Source: a virus. Taken from it: a stretch of DNA of 64,000 nucleotides. The stretch's first letter is position 1. Each line of letters opens with the position of its first letter. This document shows, one piece after another, positions 16,515-60,288 of the stretch. The notes beneath the pieces were generated by a model. The model saw only the letters and a list, made by a program, of their open reading frames with translations. It was not told where the DNA came from and searched no databases. A program made the position numbers and the translations under genes. Location: IMG/VR virus record IMGVR_UViG_3300029237_000366. The stretch is one strand, 5' to 3'.

Positions 16515-16529
16515 GGCTATTCCTCCTCG

Positions 16530-17983: not shown

Positions 17984-18011
17984 TGATACAGCCCATCAAG
18001 CAGCTGCAAAA

Positions 18012-29641: not shown

Positions 29642-30727
29642 TCAATCCTTTTCTGCCAACAGGAAATCAGGATTGATGACCTTGAAACTGATGTTGTTTT
29701 TGACATTCCTCATGACAACACCCTCGCGCTTCTGCCCATTGCGAACCACAGAACACCCCTTAGAATACTCCACCAATTCCGCAATGGTATCAGGCAGCGT
29801 TTTGCCCTCTTCAACAATGGGAACAGAGCGAATACCATAAGGCGCCAACAGCTCCTTGATTTCCGCAGTCGTGCATTTGTGGTCAGGGAAAATCAGATTG
29901 AACGCAAACAGTTCGTAGTTGCTGATGTGATACTTGTTGCCCTGAATCTGGTTGCCGCAAATCTCACCCTGTAAAACGATGGTTTCATAATCACCGATGA
30001 GCTGCCGCAGCACATTTTCGATGTTGTACTTCTTGGCAACTGTCCAGTAGGAACTGTTGTCCGGTGTACCGAGATAGATATTGCGGCTGCACACGCCGAA
30101 CTCATACTTGCGTCTGGAAACCTTACGCAAATAGTAGGTCGCTGACTGACCGTCCATCTTCTCCGTAACAGAAAACTCTGTTCCCTTGTTGCGCTCTGCC
30201 TCAAAGAGCGCAGTAAGGTTCTGGATGCGAGTCTCATCGGTCTTAACAATCCAATCAGGGAAACCACCCTTGCGCTTGGACTTCATGAACAGCTTACGAT
30301 ACCACTTGAAGCGCATAAGGAATCGCACCAGTGCGCTCTTAGGTTTGGCGGGTTGCTTGGTCAGCAGCTGCGCCTCCTGCTGTGCTTCAGGGTCATATTT
30401 CTTGATGCCCAAAACATCGGTCACATCGGCACCCAAATCGGCGGGAGCGCCATTCGGCAGAATGGACAGTGGGAGAACCAAGCCCTGACTGACCTGACCA
30501 CGAAGCTTAATGGTGCGAACACGGAACTTACGGTCACGCAAAAACTCAAACTCCGGTCTCTCTGGAACAATGGAATCAACTTCGATATAGACGATGTGTT
30601 CCCCAGTGTGGAACTCGCCCTTCTGTACAACGCACTCCCATCCGTCAACCTGAGCAACCTCGATGCGGTCTGCTCCTGCAATCGGACGGAGGGTTGTAAT
30701 CTCACGAATAGTAGCTAAGTGTCGCAT
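29642..30727 (-). CDS. ATP-dependent RNA ligase (Rnl family; N-terminal OB-like domain plus nucleotidyltransferase)
   Basis: Motif I lysine in VTEKMDGQSATYY (KxDG), plus downstream ligase-like motifs; the N-terminal domain resembles the DraRnl/Rnl5 type. Confidence 0.65.
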   Translation of the reverse strand: MRHLATIREITTLRPIAGADRIEVAQVDGWECVVQKGEFHTGEHIVYIEVDSIVPERPEFEFLRDRKFRVRTIKLRGQVSQGLVLPLSILPNGAPADLGADVTDVLGIKKYDPEAQQEAQLLTKQPAKPKSALVRFLMRFKWYRKLFMKSKRKGGFPDWIVKTDETRIQNLTALFEAERNKGTEFSVTEKMDGQSATYYLRKVSRRKYEFGVCSRNIYLGTPDNSSYWTVAKKYNIENVLRQLIGDYETIVLQGEICGNQIQGNKYHISNYELFAFNLIFPDHKCTTAEIKELLAPYGIRSVPIVEEGKTLPDTIAELVEYSKGCSVVRNGQKREGVVMRNVKNNISFKVINPDFLLAEKD

Positions 30728-33030: not shown

Positions 33031-34323
33031 TTATCCGAAGCTGACTTCGCTTTTATCGGTTCGGATAGAAATAAACACCGGGAACTGAAGACTCTCAGCA
33101 CCGGTGTTTTTATCACTGGATATTTCCTTGTACTTTACTTCGCAGAGCAAACCCGGCAGGCCATCTTTTCCTTGCCAGAATGTTGCTCGCTGCTCGTCGG
33201 TGAACCCGGAGCCGACCTTGACTTCATTCCCCTTATAGTCGAGTACAAGCGCACCTAAAGTCCCTGCCAATCTTCCGCTGCCTTCTTCGCAGCGGAGGAT
33301 ACGCAAGTCCATCGTGTAAAAGCGTTTGACCTTCAGGATTCCATTGTGTCGTCTGCACTGGTAGGGAACATTGAGGTTTACCATCAGCCCCTCTTTATCC
33401 TCACGAACCATCTGCTCCAGCAGTTCACTGATTTTGTTCTGGTCTTTTCCATGATACAGAACCGGCAGAATACTGACCCGGCCATCCTGCGGAATGAAGC
33501 GGTGAAGTTGGTCTAAGAAAGCACGGCGGTAGCCGTAACTGCCGTCGCTCTGCCCACGGTGGAACTCTTCAACCGTCAGAACATCAAAAATCGTGTAGCA
33601 AATCACCGTTTTATCACCATCGTCTGAGTTGATAATACCGGTGGCTTTGCGGAATGCCTCATTGTCTGAGAGGCTGCCCTTCTCACGAAGCGTCAGCTCA
33701 CCATCGAATACATAGCTATCCTCTTCATCAAAACAGAGAGCATCCAGAATATGGTCAAGTCCTTCATAGGGAACTCCGCTTCTTGCGTACAGTCTGCCTT
33801 TGTAATAGGTCGCCCGGACACCGTTCAGCTTTTGTGTTAGCCAGAACTCCGTGCCCTCCTTCAAAGGATACTTATCAATGGGGTACGCCTGCTGAACTTC
33901 CCATTCTGGAATCAGATTGGGGATAACCTTGTTCACGGTCTTTGCCGTGACGCCCAGCCTGAGTGTCTTGGAAAGAAGCTTGATATAAACATCAGCTTCA
34001 TCCGGCGGGCTGCTCTGAACGAATGCACAAACCTGATACACCGTACCGGCGTCCAATGCTTTTCTTTTAGACAACAGTTCGCAGACAGAAAAGATGTCTG
34101 TCATTGTCAGTGTGATGGCTGAGTCATACCGGGTAGGAGAGCGAAGCGTTTGCTCCGAAATCTTATAGGTGAGCATCGGGTTGAGCGCGTAATATAAAAA
34201 ATTACGGAAGTTCGCATCGTCTTGGAACTCCCGTAATAGCTGGGTCTTTCTTATTGAGCCGACCGCTTCCTGCAAACGGCGTAATTTTACGATAGAATCT
34301 GACAGCGGCGTTGCAGTAATCAA
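33031..34323 (-). CDS. ATP-dependent polynucleotide ligase-family protein (DNA-ligase-like, with Asn in motif I)
   Basis: Motifs KLNGVR (I, N instead of D), FDGELTL (III), EGLMVNL (IV) and ILKVKR (V), then an OB domain (GSGFTDEQR). Confidence 0.6.
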   Translation of the reverse strand: MITATPLSDSIVKLRRLQEAVGSIRKTQLLREFQDDANFRNFLYYALNPMLTYKISEQTLRSPTRYDSAITLTMTDIFSVCELLSKRKALDAGTVYQVCAFVQSSPPDEADVYIKLLSKTLRLGVTAKTVNKVIPNLIPEWEVQQAYPIDKYPLKEGTEFWLTQKLNGVRATYYKGRLYARSGVPYEGLDHILDALCFDEEDSYVFDGELTLREKGSLSDNEAFRKATGIINSDDGDKTVICYTIFDVLTVEEFHRGQSDGSYGYRRAFLDQLHRFIPQDGRVSILPVLYHGKDQNKISELLEQMVREDKEGLMVNLNVPYQCRRHNGILKVKRFYTMDLRILRCEEGSGRLAGTLGALVLDYKGNEVKVGSGFTDEQRATFWQGKDGLPGLLCEVKYKEISSDKNTGAESLQFPVFISIRTDKSEVSFG

Positions 34324-35525
34324 TCTTCATCACCCGCCTTGAAATTATAAATGGGCTTGATAATGGCATCGATGGTTACAGCTGGCTCGATATTACCGAC
34401 AATATCATCCATACCCTTATAGGCCATTGGGCATTCATCCAGCGTGCTGCGCCCAACGGAGGTCGTGTAGATACCCGCCATCTGCTTTTTGAATTCGGAT
34501 ACAGTGAAAGCTTCTTTTGCGGCGCTGCGGCTCATCAGCCGACCGGCACCATGAGGGGCGGAAAAGTTCCAATCCGGATTGCCCTTGCCGGTGCAAAGCA
34601 GGCTGCCGTCACGCATATTGATGGGAATCAACAGACGCTCACCGGCCTGTGCAGACACAGAACCCTTACGCAAAATCATGTTCTCCACATCAATATAGTT
34701 GTGAATCGTTGTAAACTGTTCAGTCACATGGAATCCCATCCCTTTGACAATGGTATCCATCATCGCCTGCCGGTTCAGCTCGGCAAAATGCTGTGCAATT
34801 TTCATGTCATGAAGATACTGCTCAAAGAGCTCGCCCTCCACATAAGCAAGCGGTTTGGGAACGGAGGAATGCTTTGACTTCATGGACTTCAACACTGCTT
34901 GAATCTCTTTCTGGCGGCCATCCGCTTTCAGCTGTTCAATAGCCGCCTCAACCTCTTCATGGCTATAAGAGGTCAGTGCCTTGAAAGCAGCCTCCTGATA
35001 GAAGTTGGCGATTTCTAAACCCAGATGACGGCTGCCGGAGTGGACAACGATATAGATATTCCCATCATCGTCCTTGTTCGCCTCAATAAAATGATTGCCG
35101 CCACCCAATGTACCGATACTGTGATAGGCACGGTCAGTGTTGACCTTTTTTGCGCAGCACAACTGCGACAAATCGATTTCTTTTGCGTAACGATGCGGTG
35201 CGGAACGGATTGCAAAGCCAGACGGAATGCCCTCACGGATAACCTTGTCCAACTTCTGCGGTTCGATATTGGTCTCTTTCAGGCGGATGGTTTCCATACC
35301 GCATCCAATATCAACGCCAACAAGGTTGGGGCAAATCTTATCCTTGATAGTCATGGTGGTTCCGATGGTGCAGCCAGCACCGGCATGAATATCCGGCATC
35401 ATACGAACCTTGCTTCCCTCGACATAGGGTTGGTTCAAGAGATTGATGACCTGAGAAATGGATTCGCTATCGACCACATCGGTAAATACTTTTGCCGAAG
35501 CGTATTTCCCCTGAAGCTCAAGCAT
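34320..35525 (-). CDS. rtcB: RtcB RNA-splicing ligase (3'-phosphate/5'-OH ligase)
   Basis: MPDIHAGAGCTIG, GGGNHFIE, VVHSGSRHLG and APHGAGR signatures. Confidence 0.9.
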   Translation of the reverse strand: MLELQGKYASAKVFTDVVDSESISQVINLLNQPYVEGSKVRMMPDIHAGAGCTIGTTMTIKDKICPNLVGVDIGCGMETIRLKETNIEPQKLDKVIREGIPSGFAIRSAPHRYAKEIDLSQLCCAKKVNTDRAYHSIGTLGGGNHFIEANKDDDGNIYIVVHSGSRHLGLEIANFYQEAAFKALTSYSHEEVEAAIEQLKADGRQKEIQAVLKSMKSKHSSVPKPLAYVEGELFEQYLHDMKIAQHFAELNRQAMMDTIVKGMGFHVTEQFTTIHNYIDVENMILRKGSVSAQAGERLLIPINMRDGSLLCTGKGNPDWNFSAPHGAGRLMSRSAAKEAFTVSEFKKQMAGIYTTSVGRSTLDECPMAYKGMDDIVGNIEPAVTIDAIIKPIYNFKAGDED

Positions 35526-38384: not shown

Positions 38385-38680
38385 GTACCGGATGACGGCC
38401 CGGCTACTTGAGTTGGTGATTTCAAGGGAATTTGTTGGTATGGGGAAGCGCTTGTGGCTCAGTGGTTTATCGACCTTGCTATATCTCGTGCTCCTGCTGC
38501 TCGGCTTCTATCGGGGTGTATCACTTCGGCGATGAGTCCTGAGCCTTCGTTCCGCCTTCGTGGCGGGCGGCCTTTGTTTTCCCAACAAATTGTTACTTTG
38601 GCCTTTGGCGCAAAGCACATTCCTTTCGGGATGTTATTCATTGCAAATGATTTTGGTGTTCCTGTAATCTACATAGGATA
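38385..38680. ncRNA. Structured noncoding repeat element, copy R1
   Basis: Core hairpin CTTTG-GCCTTTGGCG-CAAAG at 38586-38605, second hairpin ACATTCC-TTTC-GGGATGT, flanking conserved blocks (GTGTTTTCC..CCAACAA.TTGTTAC; TTATTCATTGCA..AAATG), and an upstream GC hairpin CCGCC-TTCGT-GGCGG. Confidence 0.45.
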
Positions 38681-38689
38681 AGCGTGCCG

Positions 38690-38950
38690 GATGCGAGGCG
38701 CCTGGAGCGCATTGCAGGTGCGGTTAGTTCCTATTTTAATTCTCTACTGGTGTGGAACCCATTGTGCCGCAATGACCGCTGACTCTATTTTTCATGCCTG
38801 ATGACGAGCCCGACTGGGTCGCAGCCGCGTCGGCAGCCGGTCTTCAGGAAGAGGCGAGGGTGTTCCTTCCCAACAAGTTGTTACTTATGCCTTTGGCGAT
38901 AAGCATTGCTTTCGCAATTATCCATTACAGGAAATGGCGGTTTAACCTCA
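38690..38950. ncRNA. Structured noncoding repeat element, copy R2
   Basis: Core hairpin CTTAT-GCCTTTGGCG-ATAAG at 38874-38893 (compensatory relative to R1), second hairpin ATTGC-TTTC-GCAAT, a terminal GGCGG...CCGCC hairpin; homologous upstream arm. Confidence 0.45.
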
Positions 38951-38964
38951 ATCCGCCAAAGAGA

Positions 38965-40122
38965 TTATCTTAAATCGTCTTTGATAAGCCGCAGGACATC
39001 TGTCTCCATTTTTTCGTTGGTGTGCTTCACGATGGCATCGATAGTCTCCGGCTCTACCATACGATAGTAGCTATGTAAGCCCTGCATGGTTTGAACATCT
39101 TCTCTCGGCCACGAGACGCCCTTGCGTTTATCGGTAATGTAGTTGTAAAGCATGGACTGGAACTGGCGCTTCTTCTTATGGCCGACAGTAATTTCATTGT
39201 CCTTGTTGAGCATGACACCAAGATTCCAGTTACGACCTGCGGAAGAGCCGTATCTCGTTTTGCTTTCGTTGATGGTGAACGGTGCTCCAAATTCATGCAG
39301 CGTATCCACCACGAGTTTTTCTACACGATGCACATCGAAATCAACCTTAGACGAAATGATGAAGTCATCGGCATATCTGGTGTAAATGAACCGCTGCTTG
39401 TCAAAATCACGGAATGCATTGGCAAGCTTATAGTCAACAGGAATCATCATTACATTGGTAATCAGCGGGGAAAGCGGAGTTCCCTGCGGCAGACCTCCAT
39501 TGAGAAAAGCCAAATCCAAGGCCTTCCGCAACTCTGCCTCGCCGTTGGGAAACTTTACGATTTCGCTGAATGGGAACACCATAGAAAACATTTTGATAAC
39601 ATAATCCAGTGTAGTGCTACCAAAGAAATCGTGCAAATCCAGCTTGCCGAACCACTTGCTGTTGTTTTTCTGATGACGCTTGACCGCATCAACCGTACAT
39701 CTGTTTTTTACATAGGCGAATGCAGAAGTGTGATACAACGCATGGAAATCTTCCTCAAAAATAGTCTTGAGATTCCGCAATGCGTTCATCAGCTCCGGTT
39801 TAGGGGCATCAATACGACGCAAACCACCAGACTTTTTGGGGATGTGGAATGTTTCATACAAAGTACTGCGTTCTTGTGCGCGAAGCGCCTCCGTTTGCTC
39901 ATTAAAGCGCACCAGTTTGCGGATAAGAGCATCCGTATCAATGCGGCTTGTAAAATGCTCACTTACCGTTTCATATGCATAGGTTCGTGTGTTGGAAACA
40001 TTTGTGTTTAATATGGTTTGTGCTTGGAAGTTTTGAAAGAGGAACTCCTCCAGTGTCATTTGGTGATAAATCGGGGATTGCATGACCGTGATATATACCA
40101 TAGTTCTATGCCTCCTTTTCAT
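38965..40122 (-). CDS. Reverse transcriptase (retron/group-II-intron-like, free-standing, no endonuclease domain)
   Basis: RT motifs IPKKSGGLRRI (1), AFAYVKNRCTVDA (2), LDLHDFFGS (3), GLPQGTPLSPL (4, QG type), YTRYADDFIISS (5, YADD), and a thumb-like C-terminus (ITVGHKKKRQFQSMLY; GLHSYYRMV). Confidence 0.8.
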   Translation of the reverse strand: MKRRHRTMVYITVMQSPIYHQMTLEEFLFQNFQAQTILNTNVSNTRTYAYETVSEHFTSRIDTDALIRKLVRFNEQTEALRAQERSTLYETFHIPKKSGGLRRIDAPKPELMNALRNLKTIFEEDFHALYHTSAFAYVKNRCTVDAVKRHQKNNSKWFGKLDLHDFFGSTTLDYVIKMFSMVFPFSEIVKFPNGEAELRKALDLAFLNGGLPQGTPLSPLITNVMMIPVDYKLANAFRDFDKQRFIYTRYADDFIISSKVDFDVHRVEKLVVDTLHEFGAPFTINESKTRYGSSAGRNWNLGVMLNKDNEITVGHKKKRQFQSMLYNYITDKRKGVSWPREDVQTMQGLHSYYRMVEPETIDAIVKHTNEKMETDVLRLIKDDLR

Positions 40123-40199: not shown

Positions 40200-40480
40200 G
40201 CGTTGGTGGGTATTCTTTTGATAAAAGTGGTGAGTACTTGTCGAGATTGGGTTGATTTCGTGATGGTTTTCACTTGACAGTCTCGGTTTGTTGTGTTATT
40301 CCTTCTACCGGTTCCCTGGCGGATGTCTATCGGCTTCGAGTCTCCTGAGGAGTCTCCAGTCGTCGCTCTGGGCAGGCGGTGTTTTCCACCCCGACAATTT
40401 GTTACTTCAGCCTTTGGCGTGAAGCCCCCGAAAAGGGTAATTCGTTACAGTTAAATGGCGCATTTTAAGGCTGCGCCACA
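40200..40480. ncRNA. Structured noncoding repeat element, copy R3
   Basis: Core hairpin CTTCA-GCCTTTGGCG-TGAAG at 40405-40424 (a third compensatory variant), second hairpin CCC-GAAAA-GGG, a terminal GGCGC...GCGCC hairpin; the upstream arm is homologous to R1. Confidence 0.45.
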
Positions 40481-41274
40481 CCTAATAGCTCGAACAGTTC
40501 TGCATCTGTGCAGGTTTCGTTTTTCAATGCGTATGGTTTGATGTGGGCTACGCCGTTTTCATCAACCTCTACCACTGTTTCCGGTTTCAACCGGCACAAC
40601 GGCCTAAGCCCCGCACAGTCACGGGGATATTTCCTCTCACAATACCCAGACCTACTAAGAGTCAAAGCATAGCCTCTGAATTCATCCTGCTTGCCTGCCA
40701 ACCAGAAGTTCATGTAAGACTCCCAACTGAAATTACCAAACCGGCCTTTTTTATCAGCACAGTCTTCTGTTGCTTTGGGACGAATACCTTTCTTGGAAAA
40801 CAGCTTCAGCTTCAACTGGTCATCAAAGATATCGGTGATAGTAGGAAGTCGAATGAGGGAACTGAGCGTCTCACCGTCAACAACATACTGCTGCATCTGC
40901 AAGCTATCGAGTTCATAATCTTCAAAGAAGTATAGAAACCCATAATGGTTGCGATAGCTTTGTGCTCGGTTGCTGAAAACATTATTCGGAGGGGCATCTG
41001 CTTCATGAGTTTTGCGAAACCAATCGTCTCTGTCGCTGTTTAGGTATGTATGAATATTGGACAGACGATAGTCGGGATTGCCAAGATTGCGCCTGCCGTC
41101 TCCAGTTCTTTCCGGTGCATCAAAGCAAAGATAATCCACGGCACACTCGGTGATAAAATCGCAGTTTGGACTACCTTTCAGCCAAACAACGGGGTGCGGT
41201 TCATCATTGTTGACTCCGTAAGAACCAATGATGACCTGTGTGCCGACCTTAAGGCGTTCGACGGTAGTATCCAT
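40465..41274 (-). CDS. Hypothetical protein, DUF1566/Lcl-C-terminal-like; paralog of the 45474-46148 gene
   Basis: RLPTITD..., ...SRSGYCERK...CAGLRPLCRL C-terminal pattern. Confidence 0.35.
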   Translation of the reverse strand: MDTTVERLKVGTQVIIGSYGVNNDEPHPVVWLKGSPNCDFITECAVDYLCFDAPERTGDGRRNLGNPDYRLSNIHTYLNSDRDDWFRKTHEADAPPNNVFSNRAQSYRNHYGFLYFFEDYELDSLQMQQYVVDGETLSSLIRLPTITDIFDDQLKLKLFSKKGIRPKATEDCADKKGRFGNFSWESYMNFWLAGKQDEFRGYALTLSRSGYCERKYPRDCAGLRPLCRLKPETVVEVDENGVAHIKPYALKNETCTDAELFELLGVAQP

Positions 41275-41308: not shown

Positions 41309-41986
41309 TTAAAAAGCGTCCAACATAAAGTTGAACGCATCCAAGATAATCAGTTTTTTCAGTCCCTTGCCACGAATGAAGTTGACAAAGTTGGCGACGC
41401 CGAGTGCGCAGATAGCCCTGACGGTTGGCGCAACGCCCAGTGTAACACCGCAAGCGGAGACAGGTGTTTCCTCAGACGCCTCTTCATGACTGAAGTTCAT
41501 GGAGTTCAGCAAGTCTTTCTTCATCTTGTAGTCAGACCAGTCGGCAGCATAATGCTGTGCAGATTCCAATAGAGTGCGGAAGTCCAGCATTGCTTTGACA
41601 TAGGGATTGTCGAAGTGCTTTTCAACAATCTGGCGACGAAGTTCGATATTGTCTACGCAAAGGAAGACATACCCGGAAAGCTGCTGCCCACTCCACCCCT
41701 TGCCATAAAGCTTGAGGTCGTCCTTAATTTCGGGATTGATTTCAAACAGGATATCTGCCAGAGCCTCCACTTTGGGGCGGCCAATATCCTGCTGGCGGAA
41801 AATCTGGTTTGCCAGATTATGCGGATTCACAACATCCATATCCCACAGAGCGAGATTGGTGATGCCAAGACGGACGAGGTTCTCTGCCAGCGTTGCACCA
41901 ACAGAACCACATCCAACAATGTTAATGCGAGCCTCAACCTTTTCAGGCTGGAAATACTCGTAGCTTTTGGACAAATCCATTGCCAT
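41309..41986 (-). CDS. E1-like adenylyltransferase (ThiF/MoeB/HesA family)
   Basis: The Rossmann nucleotide-binding loop IVGCGSVGATLAENLVRLGITNLALWDMDVVNPHNLANQ is typical of the E1/ThiF family. Confidence 0.75.
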   Translation of the reverse strand: MAMDLSKSYEYFQPEKVEARINIVGCGSVGATLAENLVRLGITNLALWDMDVVNPHNLANQIFRQQDIGRPKVEALADILFEINPEIKDDLKLYGKGWSGQQLSGYVFLCVDNIELRRQIVEKHFDNPYVKAMLDFRTLLESAQHYAADWSDYKMKKDLLNSMNFSHEEASEETPVSACGVTLGVAPTVRAICALGVANFVNFIRGKGLKKLIILDAFNFMLDAF

Positions 41987-41988
41987 TG

Positions 41989-42957
41989 TTACTCACCTCC
42001 AAGATACTGGTCGCTGTAGCCGCCATAGGGATATACGGAACCATCATCGTCTTCATCCCACATGGACTGCTGACAGCTATTCTTCCCCTGCCAACCTGCA
42101 CCGATTCTTGTGCGCGGCTTCTCGGCCTTTTCGGATTTTTGCTCTGATTTCTTATCAGACTTCTTGCCGTCTTTGTCATCCTTCTCATCTTTTTTGCTGC
42201 CCGGAAGAGGATTATAAGGGGCTCCGGAATAAGGTGGACGATTGCCGCTATATCCGCTATATCCACCATAGTTTCCGTAGGTATAGCTTTTCTGCTTTAC
42301 CATATCCTTGGCGGTCTTGAGGAACTCAGCCAGCCCCTCATGTTCACCCTCAAGTTTGACGGTGATGTCCTTATCTTCAAACAGGACATTCTTCTTGAGG
42401 TCATAGATTTTATTTGTACTGACAAATGACTTGTTCCAAATCATGAAGATGTAGAAGTCGTCGTCCCCCAGCATATTGAGGATTTCCTCCTGATGATTGA
42501 GGTCTACGGAAGATGGGCTGGTCGCCATATTGACATGGGAATGTCCCTGCATATGAATGTTGTTGAAACGCTCATCGTCTGCATTCTGCATCAACCACTC
42601 AGCGTACTTCTCAGTATCCATCTCAACCGTGGTTCCGGAGACCTCCTGCGGATAAACCACGATGTCTTCGATGATGTACTCATCTACGGCTTCGTCAGCT
42701 GCACGATGTGCAACGCCATGCCAAGCGACCTCCTTATCAAACTCTTTGACGAGGAGTGCCATCTTCGCCCATGCTCCGGCAGTAAAGACGACAGTTGCTT
42801 TTCTGTCGCCACAGGTGAACACCTTTGTGAAAGACAGTTTCCCATCTGCAAGCTTTGTAAGCTGCAAAGCCTTTTCAAAATCTGCACGGCACTCAGCCAT
42901 GTACTGTTCGGTCATCTTAATGGGTTTACTCATTTTGCGCCTCCTCCGCTTACTCAT
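41989..42957 (-). CDS. JAB/MPN (JAMM) metalloprotease-domain protein with a disordered Lys/Tyr-rich C-terminal tail
   Basis: HSHVNMATSPSSVD fits the JAMM motif HxHx7Sx2D. The C-terminus is low-complexity (YSGYSGNRPPYSG...KKDEKDDKDGKKSDKK); 4-bp overlap with the E1-like gene. Confidence 0.7.
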   Translation of the reverse strand: MSKRRRRKMSKPIKMTEQYMAECRADFEKALQLTKLADGKLSFTKVFTCGDRKATVVFTAGAWAKMALLVKEFDKEVAWHGVAHRAADEAVDEYIIEDIVVYPQEVSGTTVEMDTEKYAEWLMQNADDERFNNIHMQGHSHVNMATSPSSVDLNHQEEILNMLGDDDFYIFMIWNKSFVSTNKIYDLKKNVLFEDKDITVKLEGEHEGLAEFLKTAKDMVKQKSYTYGNYGGYSGYSGNRPPYSGAPYNPLPGSKKDEKDDKDGKKSDKKSEQKSEKAEKPRTRIGAGWQGKNSCQQSMWDEDDDGSVYPYGGYSDQYLGGE

Positions 42958-44413
42958 TTGCCTGCGTTTCCTGCTGCTCCAACCAGCTGATGGCTTCGTT
43001 GGGTTTTACGATACGGCCATCGGGCAGTTCAATGCAGCGATTGTTGCTACCGTTGCCCCACATAGACCGCATAAACGAAGTCATGACAGCAGAGTCTCCC
43101 CAGTTAAGGCTCTTGCAGGAAGCAACGCACTGCTCCAAAGCGCCAATATAGTCGTGGTTCCTAAGCAGCCGATTGATAGTGGTGGTATAATTACCCATGC
43201 AGTTGTAATCATTGATATGGGGATTGGGGAGGTAGTCACCATACTCCGCGCCAAAATCCCGATGCCCATTGGGAGCAACGCTACCATTAAGGTCAAAACG
43301 GTAGGAAGCACAGACACGAATTCTCAGGCGCGGCTCTTCACTGACAAAGATTTCAGTCATCAGCTTCTTCATTTTCTCAGCAGCTGCGCCTGTATGACCG
43401 GAGCCTCCGTCGGGGCGGTACACGAAACTCGTAGCGTGGTTAATGATTTGTTCTGCCATATCCCGGTCAAAATATTCCAGACAATCCTTGACCGTGAAGT
43501 ACATATCGGTATTGGTCACACGCTCCAGAACCAGCTTGGTATTACACAGGAAGTACTCCATGATTTCAGAGTCCTCACCGCCATCGGCAACTTTCTGCTC
43601 AAGTCCCAGCAAGCGAATACACTGTTCATTACGCTTTGTGAACTGCTCACCGATATTGTCATTTAGACGGGTGATTTCTCTATCGATATTTTGAATTACC
43701 TGCCTGACACGGTCACACTCAACTTGCTCATAGCGAGTTTCAAAACCCTTCAGCAGCTGACGGATTCTTGCTGTGCGGAAATCGTACCGTTCTGCAAGCT
43801 TGGCAAGACAGCGTTCATAGTCTTCTGAGCTCTTTTCGCGGAGGGATTTGACCAATGCAAGCTCATCTTCGGTGATACCCTCCTGCTGATTCAGATACCA
43901 CGGCAGGAATGCGAGGATAGATACCTGCAAGTAGTGCATTTTGCGAATGTCAAGATTGTCCGCAAAGATGATAACACTCTTAAGCTCAGGATTGATGTAG
44001 CAATCCACGGCAAAGGATTTGCGGTAAAACTCGGCGAACTTTTCAAGCCGGTGATACCCTGCAAACACGGAAACGAACTTGTCAACAATAATTTTCATGT
44101 TGGCAAGATTGCTATCCGAGTCTGCCCGCAAACTATGAATAATAACCTGACCGGTTGCGCTCATATCATAGTTGTTGCAGATAGCCGAAACGGCTCTGTC
44201 CGCCGGAACACTACGAATCGTGTCTGCCGTATAATCGGAAGAACCGAACACCAAATTGACGGACTCTCCCTCTTTGATTCGAGGTGCAACTAAGGCACGA
44301 AGCGTCGCAAGGAAAGAGCAGTCGTTTCCGAAAGCACCGCCGGTGATATTGGTGAAGTAGCTATTGGCAGCTTCCGTAGTAAACGGCGTTGACGAAATGC
44401 TTGTTTTGAACAT
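42950..44413 (-). CDS. Hypothetical large protein (about 488 aa) upstream of the JAB gene
   Basis: Start moved to the internal Met (MFKTSISS, AGAGGTG RBS) to avoid overlapping tRNA-Leu; no recognisable domain. Confidence 0.4.
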   Translation of the reverse strand: MFKTSISSTPFTTEAANSYFTNITGGAFGNDCSFLATLRALVAPRIKEGESVNLVFGSSDYTADTIRSVPADRAVSAICNNYDMSATGQVIIHSLRADSDSNLANMKIIVDKFVSVFAGYHRLEKFAEFYRKSFAVDCYINPELKSVIIFADNLDIRKMHYLQVSILAFLPWYLNQQEGITEDELALVKSLREKSSEDYERCLAKLAERYDFRTARIRQLLKGFETRYEQVECDRVRQVIQNIDREITRLNDNIGEQFTKRNEQCIRLLGLEQKVADGGEDSEIMEYFLCNTKLVLERVTNTDMYFTVKDCLEYFDRDMAEQIINHATSFVYRPDGGSGHTGAAAEKMKKLMTEIFVSEEPRLRIRVCASYRFDLNGSVAPNGHRDFGAEYGDYLPNPHINDYNCMGNYTTTINRLLRNHDYIGALEQCVASCKSLNWGDSAVMTSFMRSMWGNGSNNRCIELPDGRIVKPNEAISWLEQQETQANE

Positions 44414-44440: not shown

Positions 44441-44525
44441 TGGTGGGGAATATCGGAGTCGAACCGATATGGTATGCACCAGCGGATTTTAAGTCCGCAG
44501 CGTCTGCCTGTTCCGCCAATTCCCC
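44441..44525 (-). tRNA. tRNA-Leu(TAA)
   Basis: 85 nt: GGGGAAT acceptor, anticodon loop CTTAAAA, long variable arm, ATCGG-TTCGACT-CCGAT T-arm, CCA encoded. Confidence 0.85.
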
Positions 44526-44575
44526 ATAGAAAGAGCCGCCCGAATGGGCGGCTCAATTGGTCTATTGCTTGTGAA

Positions 44576-44803
44576 TCAGGCGTTATCGGCCTTGACCACA
44601 TTCAGCAGGAAGCACTTCTCGGTGATACCGAACTGAGCGAAGGTCTTGTCGAGGTCGCCGGGGTTCAGGGAAGACCCGTCGAGGTGCATGACGCCACGGG
44701 TATAGTCAACACCGTTCGCCTCCAGACAGGCACGCAGGGTGGTGGACTCGTCGATGATAACGGACTCGCGCTTGACATTGTTGCCAACAGTAACCTTAAT
44801 CAT
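44576..44803 (-). CDS. Small hypothetical protein with beta-grasp-like alternation of strands
   Basis: 75 aa (MIKVTVGNNVKRESVIID...GITEKCFLLNV); no C-terminal GG. Confidence 0.3.
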   Translation of the reverse strand: MIKVTVGNNVKRESVIIDESTTLRACLEANGVDYTRGVMHLDGSSLNPGDLDKTFAQFGITEKCFLLNVVKADNA

Positions 44804-44882: not shown

Positions 44883-45281
44883 TTACTGAGCGACCGTGAT
44901 GTTGCTCAGCACATTTGCCTTCTCAGCCGCAATCTCATCGAGAACGGCAGGCAGCTTCTCCTCAAGCTTGTTGAGGCTGATGATGGCGGCGCCCAGACGG
45001 TCAGCGACCCAGTCCTTAACATCGCCGGTCACACCGTCGAGGAACAGGGTGATGCACGCCAGCTTCTCATCGTCGCGGGTCTCAGCGCCGAAAGAAGCGC
45101 CGAAAGCGTTGATGTTACCGGCACCATTGGTGGTACCCACAGCGAAGATAGGCTCCTTGCCGTCCTCGCCACCCTTGAGAACCAGCTCCTTGGGACGATA
45201 CTTCTCAATGGTCTTGATGTCCTCCAGCTTTATTGCGGAAGTTACGACAGCTGCGTCGCCTGCGATAGTGATTTTTGCCAT
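44883..45281 (-). CDS. Hypothetical protein
   Basis: 132-aa ORF with a clean context. Confidence 0.4.
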   Translation of the reverse strand: MAKITIAGDAAVVTSAIKLEDIKTIEKYRPKELVLKGGEDGKEPIFAVGTTNGAGNINAFGASFGAETRDDEKLACITLFLDGVTGDVKDWVADRLGAAIISLNKLEEKLPAVLDEIAAEKANVLSNITVAQ

Positions 45282-45473: not shown

Positions 45474-46148
45474 TTAAGTGCAGAAGCCGAAAGCGACGCC
45501 ATGACTGCTGTCGGCGTAGTAATTGTTGGCGGTGCCGGTGCTGTAGACATCACAGAAACGATCGCTGTTGCCAGAACGAGGAGAACGCAACATGGTGTAA
45601 TCAGGATTACCGTTGCGGAGCTTAAACCATGCGACATCTTCCTGACGATACCACTCGTACCAATGCCCCTCACCGGGAGCGGAGTAAATATTGCGTCCAT
45701 ACAATTCCTTCTCAGACTTTATCCAGAAAGAGTCCAGCGTCTCGATAATACGATTCTCGCCAGTGTACACATCAGCTGTCTGCTTAATGACTGGTGTGAC
45801 AACATCCAAAATCTCGTCGGGAATCAGACGATGAATGTCGCCGTCCGCATCGTTGAGCCGATGGCGAATCTGCGTTGCTTCCCACGACCCTTCATTGGTG
45901 TCGCGCCTGTTCCAGGGGTAAGTGTTAGGCAGACAATCCACCATCTCCCAAGAGATAGGAGCCAAAGAACCGTCGCTCGTCTTGTCGTGATTGAAGCCGA
46001 TGATGCGAAACTGAACCTGCGCACCGTTCTTCAGCACAACATTGCGGTAATCTCCGAGCTGCAAGAAATCAGCCGCATATTTTCCAAGCCCCTTTAAGGA
46101 ACGCCATGGCATATTATCCAAACAGTTTGGCATTTCACAGACCTCCAA
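45474..46148 (-). CDS. Hypothetical protein, DUF1566/Lcl-C-terminal-like
   Basis: C-terminal MLRSPRSGNSDRFCDVYS...GVAFGFCT pattern; paralogous to 40465-41274 and to the fragment at 62614-62832. Confidence 0.4.
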   Translation of the reverse strand: MEVCEMPNCLDNMPWRSLKGLGKYAADFLQLGDYRNVVLKNGAQVQFRIIGFNHDKTSDGSLAPISWEMVDCLPNTYPWNRRDTNEGSWEATQIRHRLNDADGDIHRLIPDEILDVVTPVIKQTADVYTGENRIIETLDSFWIKSEKELYGRNIYSAPGEGHWYEWYRQEDVAWFKLRNGNPDYTMLRSPRSGNSDRFCDVYSTGTANNYYADSSHGVAFGFCT

Positions 46149-48185: not shown

Positions 48186-48998
48186 TTATCTCCAGTTGGT
48201 GGACACACGGCCATCCGGATGGATGATGATATTGGAATAGCCGTCACCGTAATCATTGTGACGCTGCTGCCACATATCACCGAGTGTTACACGAGCGTGT
48301 TTTCCTGCATAGTCAAAGGTTGCATACACAAAGAAATCGCCGATTCTGAATGTATGCACATCGACATCTGCGTCCTGCTGCAAATCATTCCAAATATCTA
48401 CAGGGTAATCTTTCTTTTCAAGACCGCTCAGGAACCGAAAAGAAAAGCTGCTGGCATCCATCTTCATGTAGTCCTTGATAAAAGTAAGCGTAGGATTCTC
48501 AACTATCGTTTGGACAGTACACCCCGGAAAACCAGCCGGGTCTGTCCAGACATAGTCGTTGCGGGAAAGGTTGATGTGCGCCAGCCCATTCAGTTCCGTG
48601 CTGAAACCCGTAGTGTTGATGGAACAAAACACACCATTACCGTTCTTACGATAAGTCTCAACGATATTGGCGATGTGCTTGGGATAAAGGCCGGGTTCGC
48701 CGCCCGTGATAGACAACCGTGCGTTGGGATGCTCCAGCAAAACCCGCCTCAACGCCTCGATTTGTGCATCAAAATCATTGTCTCCCGACATGGGATTCTG
48801 TCGTTCCAAGCAGAAGGGGCAGTGGAACGGACACTCCTGTGTCGTAATCATCTGGACATTGATGCGATAATAGAGAGGGCGTCCGAGAGAAGTTCTGACA
48901 GTCCTGTTCGCCAGCCTATACTGCAAGTCGTTGCTCATTTCGGCTCGAATATCCTCGTAGGAAGATATGTATGGTATGTAGTTCATCTTGCTGCTCAT
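48186..48998 (-). CDS. Radical SAM enzyme
   Basis: CPFHCPFC (CxxxCxxC) near the N-terminus and a SAM-binding ITGGEP motif; 270 aa, no SPASM extension. Confidence 0.7.
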   Translation of the reverse strand: MSSKMNYIPYISSYEDIRAEMSNDLQYRLANRTVRTSLGRPLYYRINVQMITTQECPFHCPFCLERQNPMSGDNDFDAQIEALRRVLLEHPNARLSITGGEPGLYPKHIANIVETYRKNGNGVFCSINTTGFSTELNGLAHINLSRNDYVWTDPAGFPGCTVQTIVENPTLTFIKDYMKMDASSFSFRFLSGLEKKDYPVDIWNDLQQDADVDVHTFRIGDFFVYATFDYAGKHARVTLGDMWQQRHNDYGDGYSNIIIHPDGRVSTNWR

Positions 48999-57684: not shown

Positions 57685-60288
57685 TTGCGCTGGCTGGATG
57701 AGCTGAACGGGATTACCGATGCTGAGGTCAGAGCGAAGGAAATCAAGATGGAAATTCGGCGTCTGCGCAAAGAGCAGAACAGTGTGCAGAACCGCCGCCG
57801 TATCAAGCAGCTTTATGCTCAGCTGGATACTATCCAGTTCAAGCCGGATTATCTGTGCGTAATCATCGACAAGGAAAAAGACTATCACCGTGCCTGCCGT
57901 GGATTCAGCATTAACGGCATCAAGTATCAGCGGCTCTTGGGGACGAATGGCGGCGTCAAGAATGAGACGATTGTCTTTGTCAGCGAACGGCACGCAGATG
58001 AAATCCGTAGGCGTATCAACAACGGTCGCAATATGGAAAAGGCGATGGTGCCTGCCAAGCTGGAAGCTTATAACGCATTGACTTGCAGCGCATCCATCCC
58101 CGTGTCTATGCCGCACGGTATTCTGGTGGTAAGCGACTGTGAGACGGAGTTCCTGTCCGATATCATTTACCTGAACGATGAGGGCGACGGCGAACCTGTA
58201 ATGGAGGAGCGTAAGCAAACAACGGTGCAGCTTAAGGAGTCAGACGGATATGGCCTGATGCTTCCATCTCTGGCAAGGCGTTGGTCAGAGGAGCTTGAAC
58301 TTGACTATCTTGTCAGCGGAGTGAACACCAGATTCTCATGGGAGAAGGGTATGGTATTTACCTTTGACTTTTTGGACTTCGCCGAGAATATCGCAGGGAC
58401 TTACATTGTCAAGGACGCATGGGGTAACGATGTGGATGTGCGGAATGTGGAACTGATACTGACAACATCCATGTTGAAGCTGTGGGACGCCTATGACAGC
58501 TGCGATGACTATGTGCAGAATTGTCTCCGCAACGGTTATACCTTCGGCGTGGCGAAGACCTGCCCCAGAGAGCTGGAAAGCGAGAGAACACTGAACTATC
58601 AGTTCATCCAGAGCTATGAGCTGGATGACGCAGATATGGAGCAGCTCATCAAGCCAACAATGGATGAGATAAAGGATGTGCTGTATGCCGATTGGGCAAA
58701 AACCGTTCTGTTTCTCAAAGGCGCAGGGCTGAACGAAGAGAATGTCGGCTGCATGGAAAACGACTTTATAAAAGCACTGATGATTGAGCCCCACATTCTT
58801 AACGACCCCTATGTTCAGAGTAGCGTTTACCAGATGATAAAGAACCGCATTAACGAGGCTAAGGTGGGTGTGCTGAAGGTACACGGAAATTATTCCATTG
58901 TGTCCGGCGACCCCTACTCCCTCTGTCAGCACATCTTTGCCATGCCGGTGACGGGGCTGTTAAAGGCCGGTGAAATCTATAACCAGTACTGGTGCCGACA
59001 GGGCGCGCAGAAGCTTGCCTGCTATCGAGCACCCATGACCTGCCACAATAATATTCGATTGGTGTATCCGAACCACAGCGAGGTGGCGGCTTACTGGTAT
59101 CAGTATATGACGACCTGCACTATCTTCAATTCGTGGGACACTGCTGCCCATGCCCTGAATGGCATGGACAAAGATGGCGACCTTGTGATGTTGACCGATA
59201 ACGATGTTCTCGTCCGCAACCTGAGAGAACTTCCTGCGCTGATGTGTGTGCAGCGTAATGCCAAAAAGAAAATCGTCACCGAGGCAGACTTCATTCAGGC
59301 GAATATCGACAGCTTCGGCGACGATATCGGAAAAACAACAAACTGGATTACCTCCATGTTTGATGTGCGGGCGCAATTCAAAAAGGGCAGCGAAGAATAC
59401 GAGGCGCTTGATTATCGTATCAAGTGTGGACAGCTATTCCAACAGAATGCTATCGACAAGGCCAAAGGTATTATTGCCAAACCCATGCCGAGAGAATGGC
59501 ACGACCGCCACAGCGTCAACACCATTGAAGACCCCGCCAAGCGCCGCTTTTATCAGAAAATCGTAGCGGATAAGAAGCCGTATTTCATGCGTATTATCTA
59601 TCCTGCGCTGATGAAGCAATACAATACATACATAAAAAACACCAATAAGAATGCCATGCGTGAATTCCAGATGACGGTAGATGAATTGCTGGAGCTGCCG
59701 CCTACCGAACTGAGTGACCGGCAGAAGGATTTCCTCCGCTATTATGAGTCCCGGATGCCCGTGGGTAATCACGACTGTGTGATGAACCGGATATGCCACC
59801 GTTTCGAGCAAGAGTTTGACGGGTATCTCGGACGGCACAGTGCAGAGACGGAGTTTGACTACACCGTTATGAAAAGCGGCGCCGCTTATACCCGTTCACA
59901 GTACAACGCAATTCTGAAGCTGTATGAGAATTATAACCACCGGCTGCGCAGCTATGCTGTGTTTGCGAACTACGAAAGGGTAGACGAGTATGACACCTTC
60001 TCAAAGATGATGGAAATGCGCACTGAGTTTGAGCAGGAGTGCAGCAAGATTTGCTCCAATCGGTTTGCTCTGTGCGACATCGTATTGGACATTTGCTACC
60101 GGAAGAGCTCGACCAAACGGTTTGCATGGGAGATGTGCGGAAATGAAATCATCTGCAATCTGCTGAACAAGCACGAGGGATTGATTTCTTATCCGACTAT
60201 CGACCCCGCCGGAGAAATCGTGTTCTGCGGGAATCGCTTTACCCTGAGACAAAAAAGACTGGAGGAATTCAATGAGCATTGTTCTTAA
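57685..60288 (+). CDS. Large hypothetical protein (867 aa), possibly a replication or primase-type protein
   Basis: Long ORF translationally coupled to the next gene; no confident motif. Confidence 0.4.
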   Translation: MRWLDELNGITDAEVRAKEIKMEIRRLRKEQNSVQNRRRIKQLYAQLDTIQFKPDYLCVIIDKEKDYHRACRGFSINGIKYQRLLGTNGGVKNETIVFVSERHADEIRRRINNGRNMEKAMVPAKLEAYNALTCSASIPVSMPHGILVVSDCETEFLSDIIYLNDEGDGEPVMEERKQTTVQLKESDGYGLMLPSLARRWSEELELDYLVSGVNTRFSWEKGMVFTFDFLDFAENIAGTYIVKDAWGNDVDVRNVELILTTSMLKLWDAYDSCDDYVQNCLRNGYTFGVAKTCPRELESERTLNYQFIQSYELDDADMEQLIKPTMDEIKDVLYADWAKTVLFLKGAGLNEENVGCMENDFIKALMIEPHILNDPYVQSSVYQMIKNRINEAKVGVLKVHGNYSIVSGDPYSLCQHIFAMPVTGLLKAGEIYNQYWCRQGAQKLACYRAPMTCHNNIRLVYPNHSEVAAYWYQYMTTCTIFNSWDTAAHALNGMDKDGDLVMLTDNDVLVRNLRELPALMCVQRNAKKKIVTEADFIQANIDSFGDDIGKTTNWITSMFDVRAQFKKGSEEYEALDYRIKCGQLFQQNAIDKAKGIIAKPMPREWHDRHSVNTIEDPAKRRFYQKIVADKKPYFMRIIYPALMKQYNTYIKNTNKNAMREFQMTVDELLELPPTELSDRQKDFLRYYESRMPVGNHDCVMNRICHRFEQEFDGYLGRHSAETEFDYTVMKSGAAYTRSQYNAILKLYENYNHRLRSYAVFANYERVDEYDTFSKMMEMRTEFEQECSKICSNRFALCDIVLDICYRKSSTKRFAWEMCGNEIICNLLNKHEGLISYPTIDPAGEIVFCGNRFTLRQKRLEEFNEHCS

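Follow-up and report, generated by a model that had tools for sequence, protein, structure and literature searches.

The complete ubiquitin-like (Ubl) cascades characterised to date in prokaryotes are weapons with which bacteria fight phages, namely the Bil, Bub and type II CBASS systems. The anti-phage Bil systems (BilABCD, 'bacterial ISG15-like', types I and II) have the gene order Ubl-E2-DUB-E1, and the conserved Gly of their Ubl, BilA, precedes up to 9 residues that are removed by BilC. In Bub (6E/DUF6527), a Ubl-E2 precursor, BubAB, is cleaved by the Bub JAB, and the chemistry is that of an oxyester, with no Cys in the crossover loop of the E1 and a Ser in the E2. The only phage-encoded pairing of a Ubl with a JAB described so far is that of the lambda/T1-type TAPI Ubl with the TAPK JAB-NlpC/P60 protein; the TAPI Ubl has a C-terminal Gly and is fused to a small C-terminal domain, from which it is thought to be released by the JAB.

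The DNA analysed here (the window, 64,000 nucleotides of IMG/VR virus record IMGVR_UViG_3300029237_000366) encodes an E1-like enzyme and a JAMM/JAB protease that probably provide activation and proteolysis in a complete, phage-encoded system of Ubl conjugation and deconjugation. The roles appear reversed in this case: the Ubl, the E1, a probable E2 and the protease, which is of the deubiquitinase type, form a private set fixed in the genomes of a whole lineage of abundant, uncultured gut phages.

A conserved six-gene cassette

The E1 and JAB genes belong to a cassette of six genes on the minus strand of the window, which runs from p132 to a retron-like reverse transcriptase (RT):

44883-45281, minus strand: p132, an ORF of 132 aa, the first gene of the cassette
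44576-44803, minus strand: Ubl, a 75-aa beta-grasp ORF ending in ...VVKADNA
42950-44413, minus strand: p488, 487 aa, with an N-terminal alpha/beta domain, a long helix (residues 224-276) and a C-terminal alpha/beta domain
41989-42933, minus strand: JAMM/JAB (MPN+) metalloprotease, domain at about residues 1-215, with an alternative upstream start at 42957
41309-41986, minus strand: E1, a minimal single-domain ThiF/UBA5-like protein of 225 aa (Pfam ThiF)
38965-40122, minus strand: retron-like RT, 385 aa (RVT_1, 3.9e-19), with which the conserved cassette ends

The genes run Ubl-p488-JAB-E1, in agreement with the Ubl-E2-DUB-E1 order of Bil. This agreement, together with the conservation of the cassette, supports the suggestion of a preliminary description of the locus that the E1 and JAB form part of a Ubl conjugation/deconjugation module. 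The large upstream protein named there exists, with a length of 487 rather than 488 aa, as does the 75-aa ORF without a terminal Gly-Gly.

The cassette is retained in approximately 160 related phage or MAG loci, among which the identity of the JAB falls to 37%. The four upstream genes are found together in 127 of 132 loci, and the RT starts less than 3 kb downstream of the E1 in 131 of 135, with a gap between the two of merely 5-15 nt in the most compact relatives (L075 and L078-L082). Flanking genes for Metallophos, DUF6273 and radical SAM proteins are lost among the loci while the cassette stays. Its location is amid replication, tRNA and RNA-repair genes, in a region that holds tRNA arrays and a YonO-like RNA polymerase. 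The carriers, which include 78 IMG/VR contigs, constitute a large lineage of roughly 100-130-kb uncultured phages, apparently with gut Clostridia as hosts, in which the cassette is fixed and vertically inherited. No bacterial non-phage copy was found among 80 genome-contig matches, all of which are MAG contigs, many of them phage-sized. A megablast search of INPHARED phages with positions 38-47 kb gave no match, and tblastn located the cassette in one GenBank record only (MT835544.1, in which it is unannotated); the literature searched held no description of a phage-encoded Ubl/E1/JAB module with an RT.

Further features lie between or at the ends of the cassette genes:

44533-44554, minus strand: GC-rich hairpin with a 9-bp stem, directly after the Ubl gene (consensus scan)
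44441-44525, minus strand: tRNA-Leu(UAA), between the Ubl gene and p488 (ARAGORN; Rfam tRNA, 55 bits)
41316-41338, minus strand: terminator-like hairpin and T-run overlapping the E1 stop codon (consensus match only)
40465-41274, minus strand: DUF6273-like protein of 269 aa, between the E1 and the RT and outside the conserved core

The tRNA-Leu(UAA) gene is found at the equivalent place in loci L001, L013, L022, L045, L047, L057, L060, L063 and L084, and tRNAs were the only Rfam matches over 36.5-50 kb. The hairpin that follows the Ubl gene may be an attenuator between the abundant p132/Ubl genes and the enzyme genes, but counts of terminators and promoters in scans of the region are not above those of shuffled sequences, so that both hairpins are only suggestive. 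The 269-aa DUF6273-like protein, the N-terminal part of which matches PHROG 10993 ('Hoc-like head decoration', 1.4e-11), is encoded in the closer relatives only; most loci whose JAB identity is under about 55% lack it.

The ubiquitin-like protein and p132

The 75-aa protein has a beta-grasp fold with a flexible C-terminal tail and, as far as can be judged from its sequence, it behaves like a Ubl. It is the slowest-evolving protein of the cassette, and sequence and profile searches of Pfam, NCBIfam, PHROGs, PADLOC and the PDB returned nothing for it. In 106 distinct sequences the tail closes with an invariant Ala, after which come 0-4 non-conserved residues, an arrangement that mirrors the Gly and up to 9 residues of BilA. 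The conserved terminus is [N/G/C/S]-Ala, with D-N-A here and G-A, C-A or S-A in variants, in place of the C-terminal Gly (Gly-Gly) of a typical Ubl; a GG end occurs in a single sequence of the 106. For the adenylation of a C-terminal Ala there is a precedent in Cap2, whose E1 domain acts in this way on E. cloacae CdnD (...GRFA-AMP).

In nearly all loci the Ubl is immediately preceded by p132, which has a beta-rich N-terminal part, a C-terminal amphipathic helix and no conserved catalytic-type residue. It has no match in Pfam, NCBIfam, PHROGs, PADLOC or a profile search of the PDB, and hhalign detects no relation to p488 or to the JAB. In four loci (L123, L125, L133 and L142) the Ubl reads on in frame into p132 through the junction ...DNA-A(K/V/E/T)..., in which the Met of p132 is replaced and ...DNA is joined straight to its residue 2. 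The sequences accordingly present three forms of the Ubl, namely the mature protein (...KADNA), the protein with 1-4 additional C-terminal residues and, in some relatives, a linear Ubl-p132 fusion. The variable tails after the Ala and the fusions provide an obvious substrate for the JAB within the cassette, and p132 is the lead candidate for a target of the Ubl, whether as substrate or as partner.

The E1 and the JAMM protease

The E1, which carries GCGSVGATLAENLVRLGITNLALWDMD, matches Pfam ThiF (PF00899) with an E-value of 1.7e-23 and 83.4 bits against a cut-off of 28.1, in agreement with its earlier description as a minimal ThiF-type E1 of 225 aa. Invariant in all 131 homologues are the GxGxxG motif (G25, G27, G30), D49, D51, K72, D112, R137 and C179, the last within the sequence 'TPVSACG'. 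The helix downstream of Cys179 aligns to the residues of UBA5 just past the catalytic Cys of that enzyme, which we take to be Cys250, and Cys179 is an invariant crossover-loop Cys, the candidate catalytic residue of a thioester-forming E1. Position 60 is an Asn in 131/131, where UBA7 and UBA1 have the Arg of the NLxRQ motif. In the ThiF/E1 superfamily this Arg touches the ATP phosphates. Since mutation of the equivalent Arg in BilD (R246A) serves as an adenylation-dead control, the chemistry of the present E1 could differ.

All NCBIfam equivalog cut-offs lie above the scores of the E1, the best being 77.5 bits for ThiF (NF006395, cut-off 159), with 51 bits for MoeB (cut-off 376.6) and 41.7 bits for TcdA (cut-off 304). 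The family profile finds its best PDB match in UBA5 (4.7e-18), the best PADLOC matches are Cap2 E1 domains, and Zn-binding CxxC pairs are absent. A role in thiamine or molybdopterin biosynthesis was rejected on the ThiF and MoeB scores; membership of such a clade in a host-like context, which had been named as the outcome that would overturn the initial assignment, is contradicted by these scores, by UBA5 as closest relative and by the phage context. A PRTRC cassette was also considered and rejected, as the PRTRC_ThiF score of 25.6 bits falls far short of the 144.75 needed and no PRTRC A-F or ParB partners are present.

The JAB ORF extends over 41989-42957 (322 aa) and includes HSHVNMATSPSSVD, which matches HxHx7Sx2D, the motif on which the preliminary description had relied. 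A 'YPQ' element and, upstream, the Glu E76 of 'KEVAWHG' make the signature complete. None of the five residues E76, H139, H141, S149 and D152 varies among the 135 distinct homologues aligned, which is far more than would be expected of a chance motif. Pfam, NCBIfam and PHROGs do not recognise the protein. Its sole match in a defence library is to the Cap3-type JAB of PADLOC, which is weak (E=9e-4), and its family profiles retrieve only Rpn11 from the PDB, again weakly (E=0.059 and 0.028); in these alignments the Glu, the HxH and the S..D fall on the catalytic residues of Rpn11 and are not displaced from them, as the first assignment demanded. The protein is, as its motif indicates, probably a JAMM/MPN+ metalloprotease, with statistically weak sequence-level homology (E ~0.03-0.001). 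Both it and the E1 look active, judged from the conservation of catalytic residues.

In most homologues the JAB starts at the second ATG (MSKPIK...), which is preceded by GGAGGAGG, so that the gene is probably 41989-42933, encoding 314 aa. The tail (residues ~222-322) is long and disordered, Tyr/Gly-rich and then Lys/acid-rich, which refines its previous description as Lys/Tyr-rich, and is poorly conserved except for the motifs 'PYNPL' and 'EKPRTRIGAGW' in close relatives. The JAB and E1 genes had been thought to overlap by 4 bp; the JAB stop codon (TAA, 41989-41991) and the E1 start codon (ATG, 41984-41986) are in fact separated by a 2-nt spacer, and GGAGG stands immediately upstream of the E1 start.

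A candidate E2

The C-terminal domain of p488 contains the invariant motif P-N-P-H399-I-x4-C405-x-G, in which a His-x5-Cys pair is located in a loop past a beta-meander and ahead of helices. On this basis p488 is a candidate E2-like carrier or ligase, although a Cys/His peptidase or another kind of ligase is possible. No E2 was recognised in p488 by profiles or by Foldseek. Matches to UQ_con, Prok-E2 and RWD are absent, with no Pfam match in 18 divergent members even at E<=10, and NCBIfam, PHROGs and PADLOC likewise gave nothing. Neither sequence and profile searches of the PDB with the full-length protein and the C-terminal domain nor a Foldseek search of the PDB with a model of p488 produced a match, and hhalign of the p488 profiles against BilB (preprint sequence) and against UBE2D2 gave probabilities below 1%. 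The family is very large, as indicated by an exhaustive HMMER search with the C-terminal domain and by 2,082 clusters at 50% identity; the 150 matches listed share the same architecture of about 490 aa, and this uniformity means that they offer no bridge from p488 to known E2s.

The reverse transcriptase and its ncRNA repeats

The RT is accompanied by three copies of an ncRNA repeat:

40355-40455, minus strand: ncRNA repeat copy 1, upstream of the RT
38547-38934, minus strand: ncRNA repeat copies 2 (38836-38934) and 3 (38547-38647), downstream of the RT

The RT scores best on retron models, with 177 bits (4e-52) for NCBIfam retron_St85, under the cut-off of 235, and 1.6e-47 for PADLOC RT_II-A, and its YxDD motif is present in 127 of 129 homologues. 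The ncRNA copies, which match no Rfam family, are found on both sides of the RT in 68 sequences; in L097, where the RT is relocated, an ncRNA copy has moved along with it. A diversity-generating retroelement was considered and rejected: the repeats are non-coding, the 3' ends of DUF6273 genes contain none of them, and no DGR model is found among the matches of the RT. None of the 13 retron types is known to have Ubl, E1 or JAB partners, and no such retron was found in the literature searched.

The pairing of the RT and ncRNAs with the cassette makes a connection of reverse transcription with protein tagging directly accessible to tests. The idea that the RT, its ncRNAs and the Ubl cascade form a single machine is prompted by the Arg-to-Asn exchange in all E1 members, the non-Gly terminus of the Ubl, the 5-15-nt gaps between E1 and RT and the L097 ncRNA that moves with the RT, and is advanced here tentatively, as a rather improbable extension of the main reading. 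In one version, Ubl conjugation would have the RT-ncRNA or cDNA complex as its sensor, guide or substrate; in a more radical one, the E1-activated ..Asn-Ala end would be joined to a nucleotide or RT product in the manner of MccB, to yield a protein-linked nucleic acid, possibly a primer. Because all loci come from one phage lineage, the synteny with the RT could reflect inheritance and not function.

Proposed mechanism and alternative explanations

By analogy with BilC, BubC and Cap3, the JAB would cut the Ubl precursor after its invariant Ala and would later strip the Ubl from its targets. The E1, probably a homodimer like UBA5 and ThiF, would use ATP to adenylate the C-terminal Ala, and the Ubl may then be held as a thioester on Cys179 before being handed to Cys405 of p488, beside His399 in what would be a UBC/RWD-like C-terminal domain; this transfer is the weakest step of the proposal. 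The acceptor may be chosen by the N-terminal domain and long helix of p488, and the Ubl would finally be ligated to an amino group of the target, with p132, probably through its N-terminus, as the best candidate for substrate or cofactor. Since the cassette is fixed, vertically inherited and joined to an RT with ncRNAs, it is taken to serve the infection cycle of the phage itself, and would tag phage or host proteins for the phage rather than being exchangeable defence cargo. If this is true, bacterial viruses, like many eukaryotic viruses, exploit ubiquitin-like tagging for themselves, an E1 can act on a Ubl that ends in Ala, and do so with Asn in place of the active-site Arg, and the 225-aa E1 with its novel Cys/His carrier constitutes a third independent minimal architecture of ubiquitination.

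Among the roles raised in the preliminary description, a conjugation system is thus favoured, and the alternatives differ from it mainly in the part given to p488 or in the purpose of the cassette. An E2-independent system of the SAMP/Urm1 type, in which the E1 would pass the Ubl straight to its targets, is unlikely in our estimation; p488 would then be no thioester carrier and would act as substrate, adaptor, or second Cys/His peptidase or ligase. It draws on the failure of sequence methods and Foldseek to recognise an E2 in p488, on an invariant His/Cys pair that would suit a thiol peptidase too, and on the resemblance of the minimal E1 to enzymes that work without a canonical E2 (ThiF/MoeB-like). 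It is quite unlikely that the cassette is a Bil-like superinfection exclusion system plus retron, carried by a temperate phage on behalf of the lysogen and tagging the structural proteins of competitors. In its favour are the frequent presence of defence systems in prophages, an architecture and gene order shared with Bil, whose defensive role is proven, and the RT, for which retron and defence RT models give the best matches. However, the cassette is no variable 'moron', being kept in the same place in the ~160 loci across JAB divergence to 37% while its neighbours vary; all its proteins are under defence-family thresholds, and neither the Ubl nor p488 has a PADLOC match; the 80 genome-contig matches included no bacterial non-phage copy, and no integrase was noticed in passing among the genes examined.

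The two other roles suggested at the outset fare worse. A sulfur relay, in which a ThiS/MoaD/TtuB-like carrier matured by the JAB would be thiocarboxylated by the E1 with sulfur from the phage cysteine desulfurase, for thiolation of the phage tRNAs, is very unlikely. The desulfurase gene (16781-17983) is present in the window but is ~24 kb away and outside the conserved cassette, as is, at ~4 kb, the sporadically kept radical-SAM gene (48186-48998) that had been invoked with it; the Ubl does not end in Gly-Gly, the ThiF and MoeB scores are far under their cut-offs, and the cassette has no rhodanese domain, no thiolase, no TtuA/ThiG/MoaE-type acceptor enzyme and no Zn-binding CxxC pairs, whereas the Ubl-p132 fusions and the Bil-like gene order favour protein conjugation. 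Phages commonly encode counter-defences, and the JAB, whose only defence-library match is to Cap3-type models, might be a stand-alone anti-defence deconjugase that strips host Bil-Ubl or CBASS cGAS conjugates, with the E1 incidental. That match is weak, the JAB was never seen without its own Ubl, E1 and p488 among the loci compared, and the Ubl tails and fusions supply it with a substrate in the cassette, all of which makes such a function extremely unlikely.

Comparison with known systems

As with the TAPI/TAPK pair of lambda/T1-type phages, a phage-encoded Ubl is paired with a JAB in the present system; the TAPI/TAPK pair, however, is located inside a tail-assembly gene cluster, with neither an E1 nor an E2-like protein. 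The adjacent RT resembles retrons in its preference for retron RT models and in the putatively structured ncRNA repeats that flank it, but differs in an RT score under the curated cut-off, in the lack of an Rfam match and in the presence of three ncRNA copies. With UBA5, ThiF and MoeB the E1 shares a single adenylation domain and a catalytic-type Cys at the C-terminal end of the crossover loop, UBA5 being the best solved relative. Only residues ~3-120 align well, however, and the Asn in place of the NLxRQ Arg, the missing Zn-binding Cys pairs and, relative to UBA5, the missing C-terminal UFM1/UFC1-binding extension set it apart.

The relationship with type II CBASS is seen in the E1 domains of Cap2 (E1-E2), which are the best PADLOC matches of the E1, in the Cap3-type models that are the only ones matched by the JAB, and in the precedent that Cap2 sets for a C-terminal Ala. 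In contrast to CBASS, the cassette has no CD-NTase and no effector, its E1 and candidate E2 are unfused, and its substrate is a dedicated beta-grasp Ubl rather than the tail of an enzyme. Bub likewise has a minimal homodimer-type E1 that resembles UBA5/ThiF and a Ubl that can be made as a linear fusion, released by the JAB in the case of BubAB and found here as Ubl-p132 in four loci. Unlike the Bub enzymes, the E1 and p488 have invariant Cys residues (Cys179 and Cys405), the cassette has no match to the DUF6527/BubE protease and no JAB-E1 fusion, and its fusion partner, p132, lacks a conserved catalytic-type residue.

With Bil the cassette has its gene order in common, and it differs in several respects. 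Bil occupies bacterial defence islands and the present cassette phage contigs; BilD is ~500 aa in length, compared with the single 225-aa adenylation domain of the E1, which has no IAD or inserted CYS domain; the Ubl ends in Ala and not in Gly; p488 has 487 aa, no sequence similarity to BilB, and its His before the Cys, unlike the C...E.H....H ('CEHH') arrangement of BilB; no Bil/ISG15-like match is found by PADLOC for the Ubl or p488; and p132 and the RT with its ncRNAs are added as conserved partners. The best reading of these comparisons is that the cassette resembles Bil or Bub in its logic and belongs to neither.

Composition and conservation of the cassette

The cassette comprises p132, a 75-aa ubiquitin-like protein (Ubl), p488, a JAB protein, an E1 protein and a retron-like reverse transcriptase (RT), and is arranged with its neighbours in the window as follows:

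38547-38647, 38836-38934 and 40355-40455, minus strand: ncRNA repeat copies of about 100 nt, flanking the RT
38965-40122, minus strand: RT
40465-41274 and 45474-46148, minus strand: two DUF6273-like paralogues, bracketing the cassette
41309-41986, minus strand: E1, 225-aa ORF of the ThiF/E1 family
41989-42957, minus strand: JAB, 322-aa ORF with a JAMM signature
42950-44413, minus strand: p488
44441-44525, minus strand: tRNA-Leu(UAA), lying within the cassette, with the Ubl gene on one side and p488 on the other
44576-44803, minus strand: Ubl
44883-45281, minus strand: p132
48186-48998, minus strand: radical-SAM protein with a weak match to prokaryotic viperins
57685-60288, plus strand: 867-aa protein, Pfam RdRP PF05183 (1.7e-14)

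Related DNA was retrieved as 4 metagenome contigs, 78 IMG/VR viral contigs and 80 GTDB genome contigs (all MAGs, mostly Clostridia, many of 95-135 kb), and the cassette was surveyed by BLASTP and HMM searches of the ORFs on the fetched contigs. Throughout these contigs the six genes form one co-directional block: p132, Ubl, p488 and JAB are all there in 127 of the 132 loci with enough upstream sequence, and the RT starts less than 3 kb downstream of E1 in 131 of 135 loci, a synteny for which all loci come from one phage lineage. Where divergence is greatest, at loci whose JAB is 37-49% identical, the genes lie only 5-15 nt apart. Metallophos, the two DUF6273-like genes and the radical-SAM gene, which are neighbours in the window, are missing from more distant relatives. 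Because its position is fixed lineage-wide while the neighbours vary, the cassette appears to belong to the core of these phages, not to their cargo. Among GenBank phage records it was found in one only, the unannotated MT835544.1 from human faeces.

Some loci differ in composition. p132 and Ubl are each present in two tandem copies at L070:6659-8208 and L104:174-2209; L155 retains neither p488 nor JAB, and its E1 is shortened; and no RT follows E1 in L104 and L112.

The E1 and JAB proteins

The preliminary description had proposed a ThiF-type E1 overlapping by 4 bp a second ORF with a JAMM motif. The E1 is borne out by a match to Pfam PF00899 (1.7e-23; 83.4 bits, cut-off 28.1), and the adenylation-site residues (the GxGxxG motif, D49, D51, K72, D112 and R137) are invariant across 131 distinct sequences. 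Equally invariant is Cys179, which lies in 'TPVSACG' where the crossover region ends. The nearest match to the family profile is UBA5 (4.7e-18), a minimal homodimeric E1, followed by Uba1, TcdA, MoeB, ThiF, MccB and Cap2, while the protein falls far short of each of the ThiF, MoeB and TcdA equivalog cut-offs. There is one anomaly: every family member (n=131) carries Asn at the Arg position of the N-L-x-R-Q motif, an ATP-binding motif in which, to our knowledge, all characterised E1/ThiF enzymes have Arg. Mutation of this Arg in BilD (R246A) has served as an adenylation-site control. The invariant Lys7 and Arg137 might compensate for the replacement.

The JAMM motif is likewise present, HSHVNMATSPSSVD being joined by an upstream Glu in 'KEVAWHG' and by 'YPQ' to make up the JAMM signature. 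The overlap was wrong, as the junction (...GGTGAG TAA CA ATG...) leaves two bases between the genes. Because the second ATG, preceded by GGAGGAGG, is the start in most JAB homologues, the JAB gene probably spans 41989-42933. The protein is unrecognised by Pfam, NCBIfam and PHROGs and weakly matches a Cap3-type JAB in PADLOC (E=9e-4); against the PDB, two JAB family profiles matched Rpn11 only (E=0.059 and 0.028), and their Glu, HxH and S..D align with its catalytic residues. A metagenome protein collection holds 1,929 homologues, none with a Pfam domain.

JAB residues of about 222-322 (41989-42330) form a disordered tail with the short motifs 'PYNPL' and 'EKPRTRIGAGW', whose conservation extends to relatives of about 58% identity and which are flanked by Tyr/Gly-rich and Lys/Asp-rich low-complexity stretches. 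These may be docking motifs.

The Ubl and its fusions to p132

The product of the 75-aa ORF is ubiquitin-like and is the best-conserved protein of the cassette, with 95% identity where JAB and p488 show about 69% and E1 about 84%. Over 106 distinct sequences its tail has the form K-A-D-[N/G/C/S]-A, after which the protein either stops or continues for 1-4 unconserved residues (A, R, AA, NN, LAL, LAA and RVIV, for example), and a GG terminus occurs in one of the 106. BilA, from which BilC removes the tail, shows the same pattern of a conserved residue and a variable tail. E1 enzymes accept a C-terminal Ala: E. cloacae CdnD, which ends in ...GRFA, was captured as an AMP conjugate in Cap2.

Four MAG loci encode an in-frame Ubl-p132 fusion (L123:6393-7013, L125:1606-2370, L133:7113-7757 and L142:6907-7518), in which residue 2 of p132 directly follows the Ubl ...DNA, as in '...VVKADNA|AVIKIVGG...' and '...KDNA|AKATIVGS...'. 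Judged from these junctions, a cut after Ala would free both the mature Ubl and a p132 with the N-terminus of the unfused protein minus Met. Fusions of ubiquitin to ribosomal proteins are a known parallel; another is the BubAB precursor, which is cleaved by the Bub JAB. On the strength of the fusions, p132 is therefore the best candidate for a Ubl partner or N-terminal acceptor. No relatives of p132 were detectable in Pfam, NCBIfam, PHROGs, PADLOC or a PDB profile search. In a reversal of the usual p132-then-Ubl order, the Ubl comes first at the four fusion loci.

p488, a probable E2-like carrier

In an AlphaFold2 model of p488 (pLDDT 88.7), two alpha/beta domains, one N-terminal and one C-terminal, are separated by a 50-residue helix. 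His399 and Cys405, in 'PNPHIxxxxCxG', are the sole invariant residues among members down to 12% identity, and the model places this motif in a loop between a beta-meander and three helices. On our own reading of the model, this position would match the layout of the UBC fold, and the motif recalls the E2 'HPN...C' motif. Speaking against this, Foldseek and profile searches of the PDB, Pfam searches with 18 divergent members and hhalign comparisons with BilB and UBE2D2 returned nothing. The C-domain family is very large, comprising 2,082 clusters at 50% identity (E<=0.001), and the 150 matches listed share one architecture. We regard p488 as a probable E2-like thioester carrier.

The reverse transcriptase and ncRNA repeats

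Retron models are the best RT matches, yet fall under their cut-offs; YxDD is kept in 127 of 129 RT sequences. The repeats share the core GCTTnnCGCCAAAGGCnnAAGTAACAAnTTGTnGGG, preceded by a variable hairpin whose stem shows compensatory changes, and match no Rfam family. With nhmmer, the repeat was found in a like arrangement in 68 related sequences. At L097 the RT lies between JAB and E1, and one repeat copy has moved along with it. A fourth, weak copy lies at 21251-21308.

Genomic surroundings

The window encodes RtcB, RNA ligase, Thg1, a CCA-adding enzyme (with an HD domain), an RlaP-family nucleotidyltransferase, an ATP-dependent DNA ligase, a cysteine-desulfurase-like class-V aminotransferase, a YonO-like RNA polymerase and 13 tRNAs. 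RNA/tRNA-repair genes are dense at 14150-19956, 29642-30727 and 33031-35525, minus strand. This polymerase is the 867-aa RdRP-like protein; we take its PF05183 match to reflect a fold shared by the single-subunit RNA polymerases of YonO-type and crAss-type phages, a clue to what sort of phage this is. A suggested role of the radical-SAM protein in a sulfur relay is not supported, its gene being near the cassette just sporadically in relatives. The protein matches prokaryotic viperin models weakly (2.5e-7; 30 bits, cut-off 180).

The tRNA-Leu(UAA) keeps its place in many relatives, sometimes with a tRNA-Leu(CAA), and tmRNA genes occur close to the cassette on related phage contigs (L038:1729-2138, L084:18615-18922). 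A tRNA with a UCA anticodon in L070, 'SeC' according to ARAGORN, is possibly a suppressor. One DUF6273-like paralogue has an N-terminal match to the PHROG 'Hoc-like head decoration' (1.4e-11).

Proposed mechanism and comparison with known systems

From the observed parts of the cassette and their invariant residues, we infer each chemical step of a Ubl cascade by analogy with Bil, Bub and CBASS. JAB would cut Ubl precursors after Ala75, which E1 would adenylate and then bind as a thioester on Cys179; the Ubl would be handed to Cys405 of p488, which would pick an acceptor and ligate the Ubl to it, and JAB would undo the modification.

A full-text literature search turned up no account of a Ubl/E1/JAB cassette encoded by a phage, nor of an RT-linked one. 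Should the RT turn out to belong to the mechanism, the system could count as a new category. The cassette would work like Bil, but lacks the Bil E1 architecture and terminal Gly. Its likeness to Bub is partial, and it has neither the Bub oxyester residues nor BubE; its likeness to Cap2/Cap3 of CBASS is partial too, and it has no CD-NTase. The only phage Ubl and JAB pair described so far, the TAPI/TAPK tail-assembly pair of lambda, has neither E1 nor E2.
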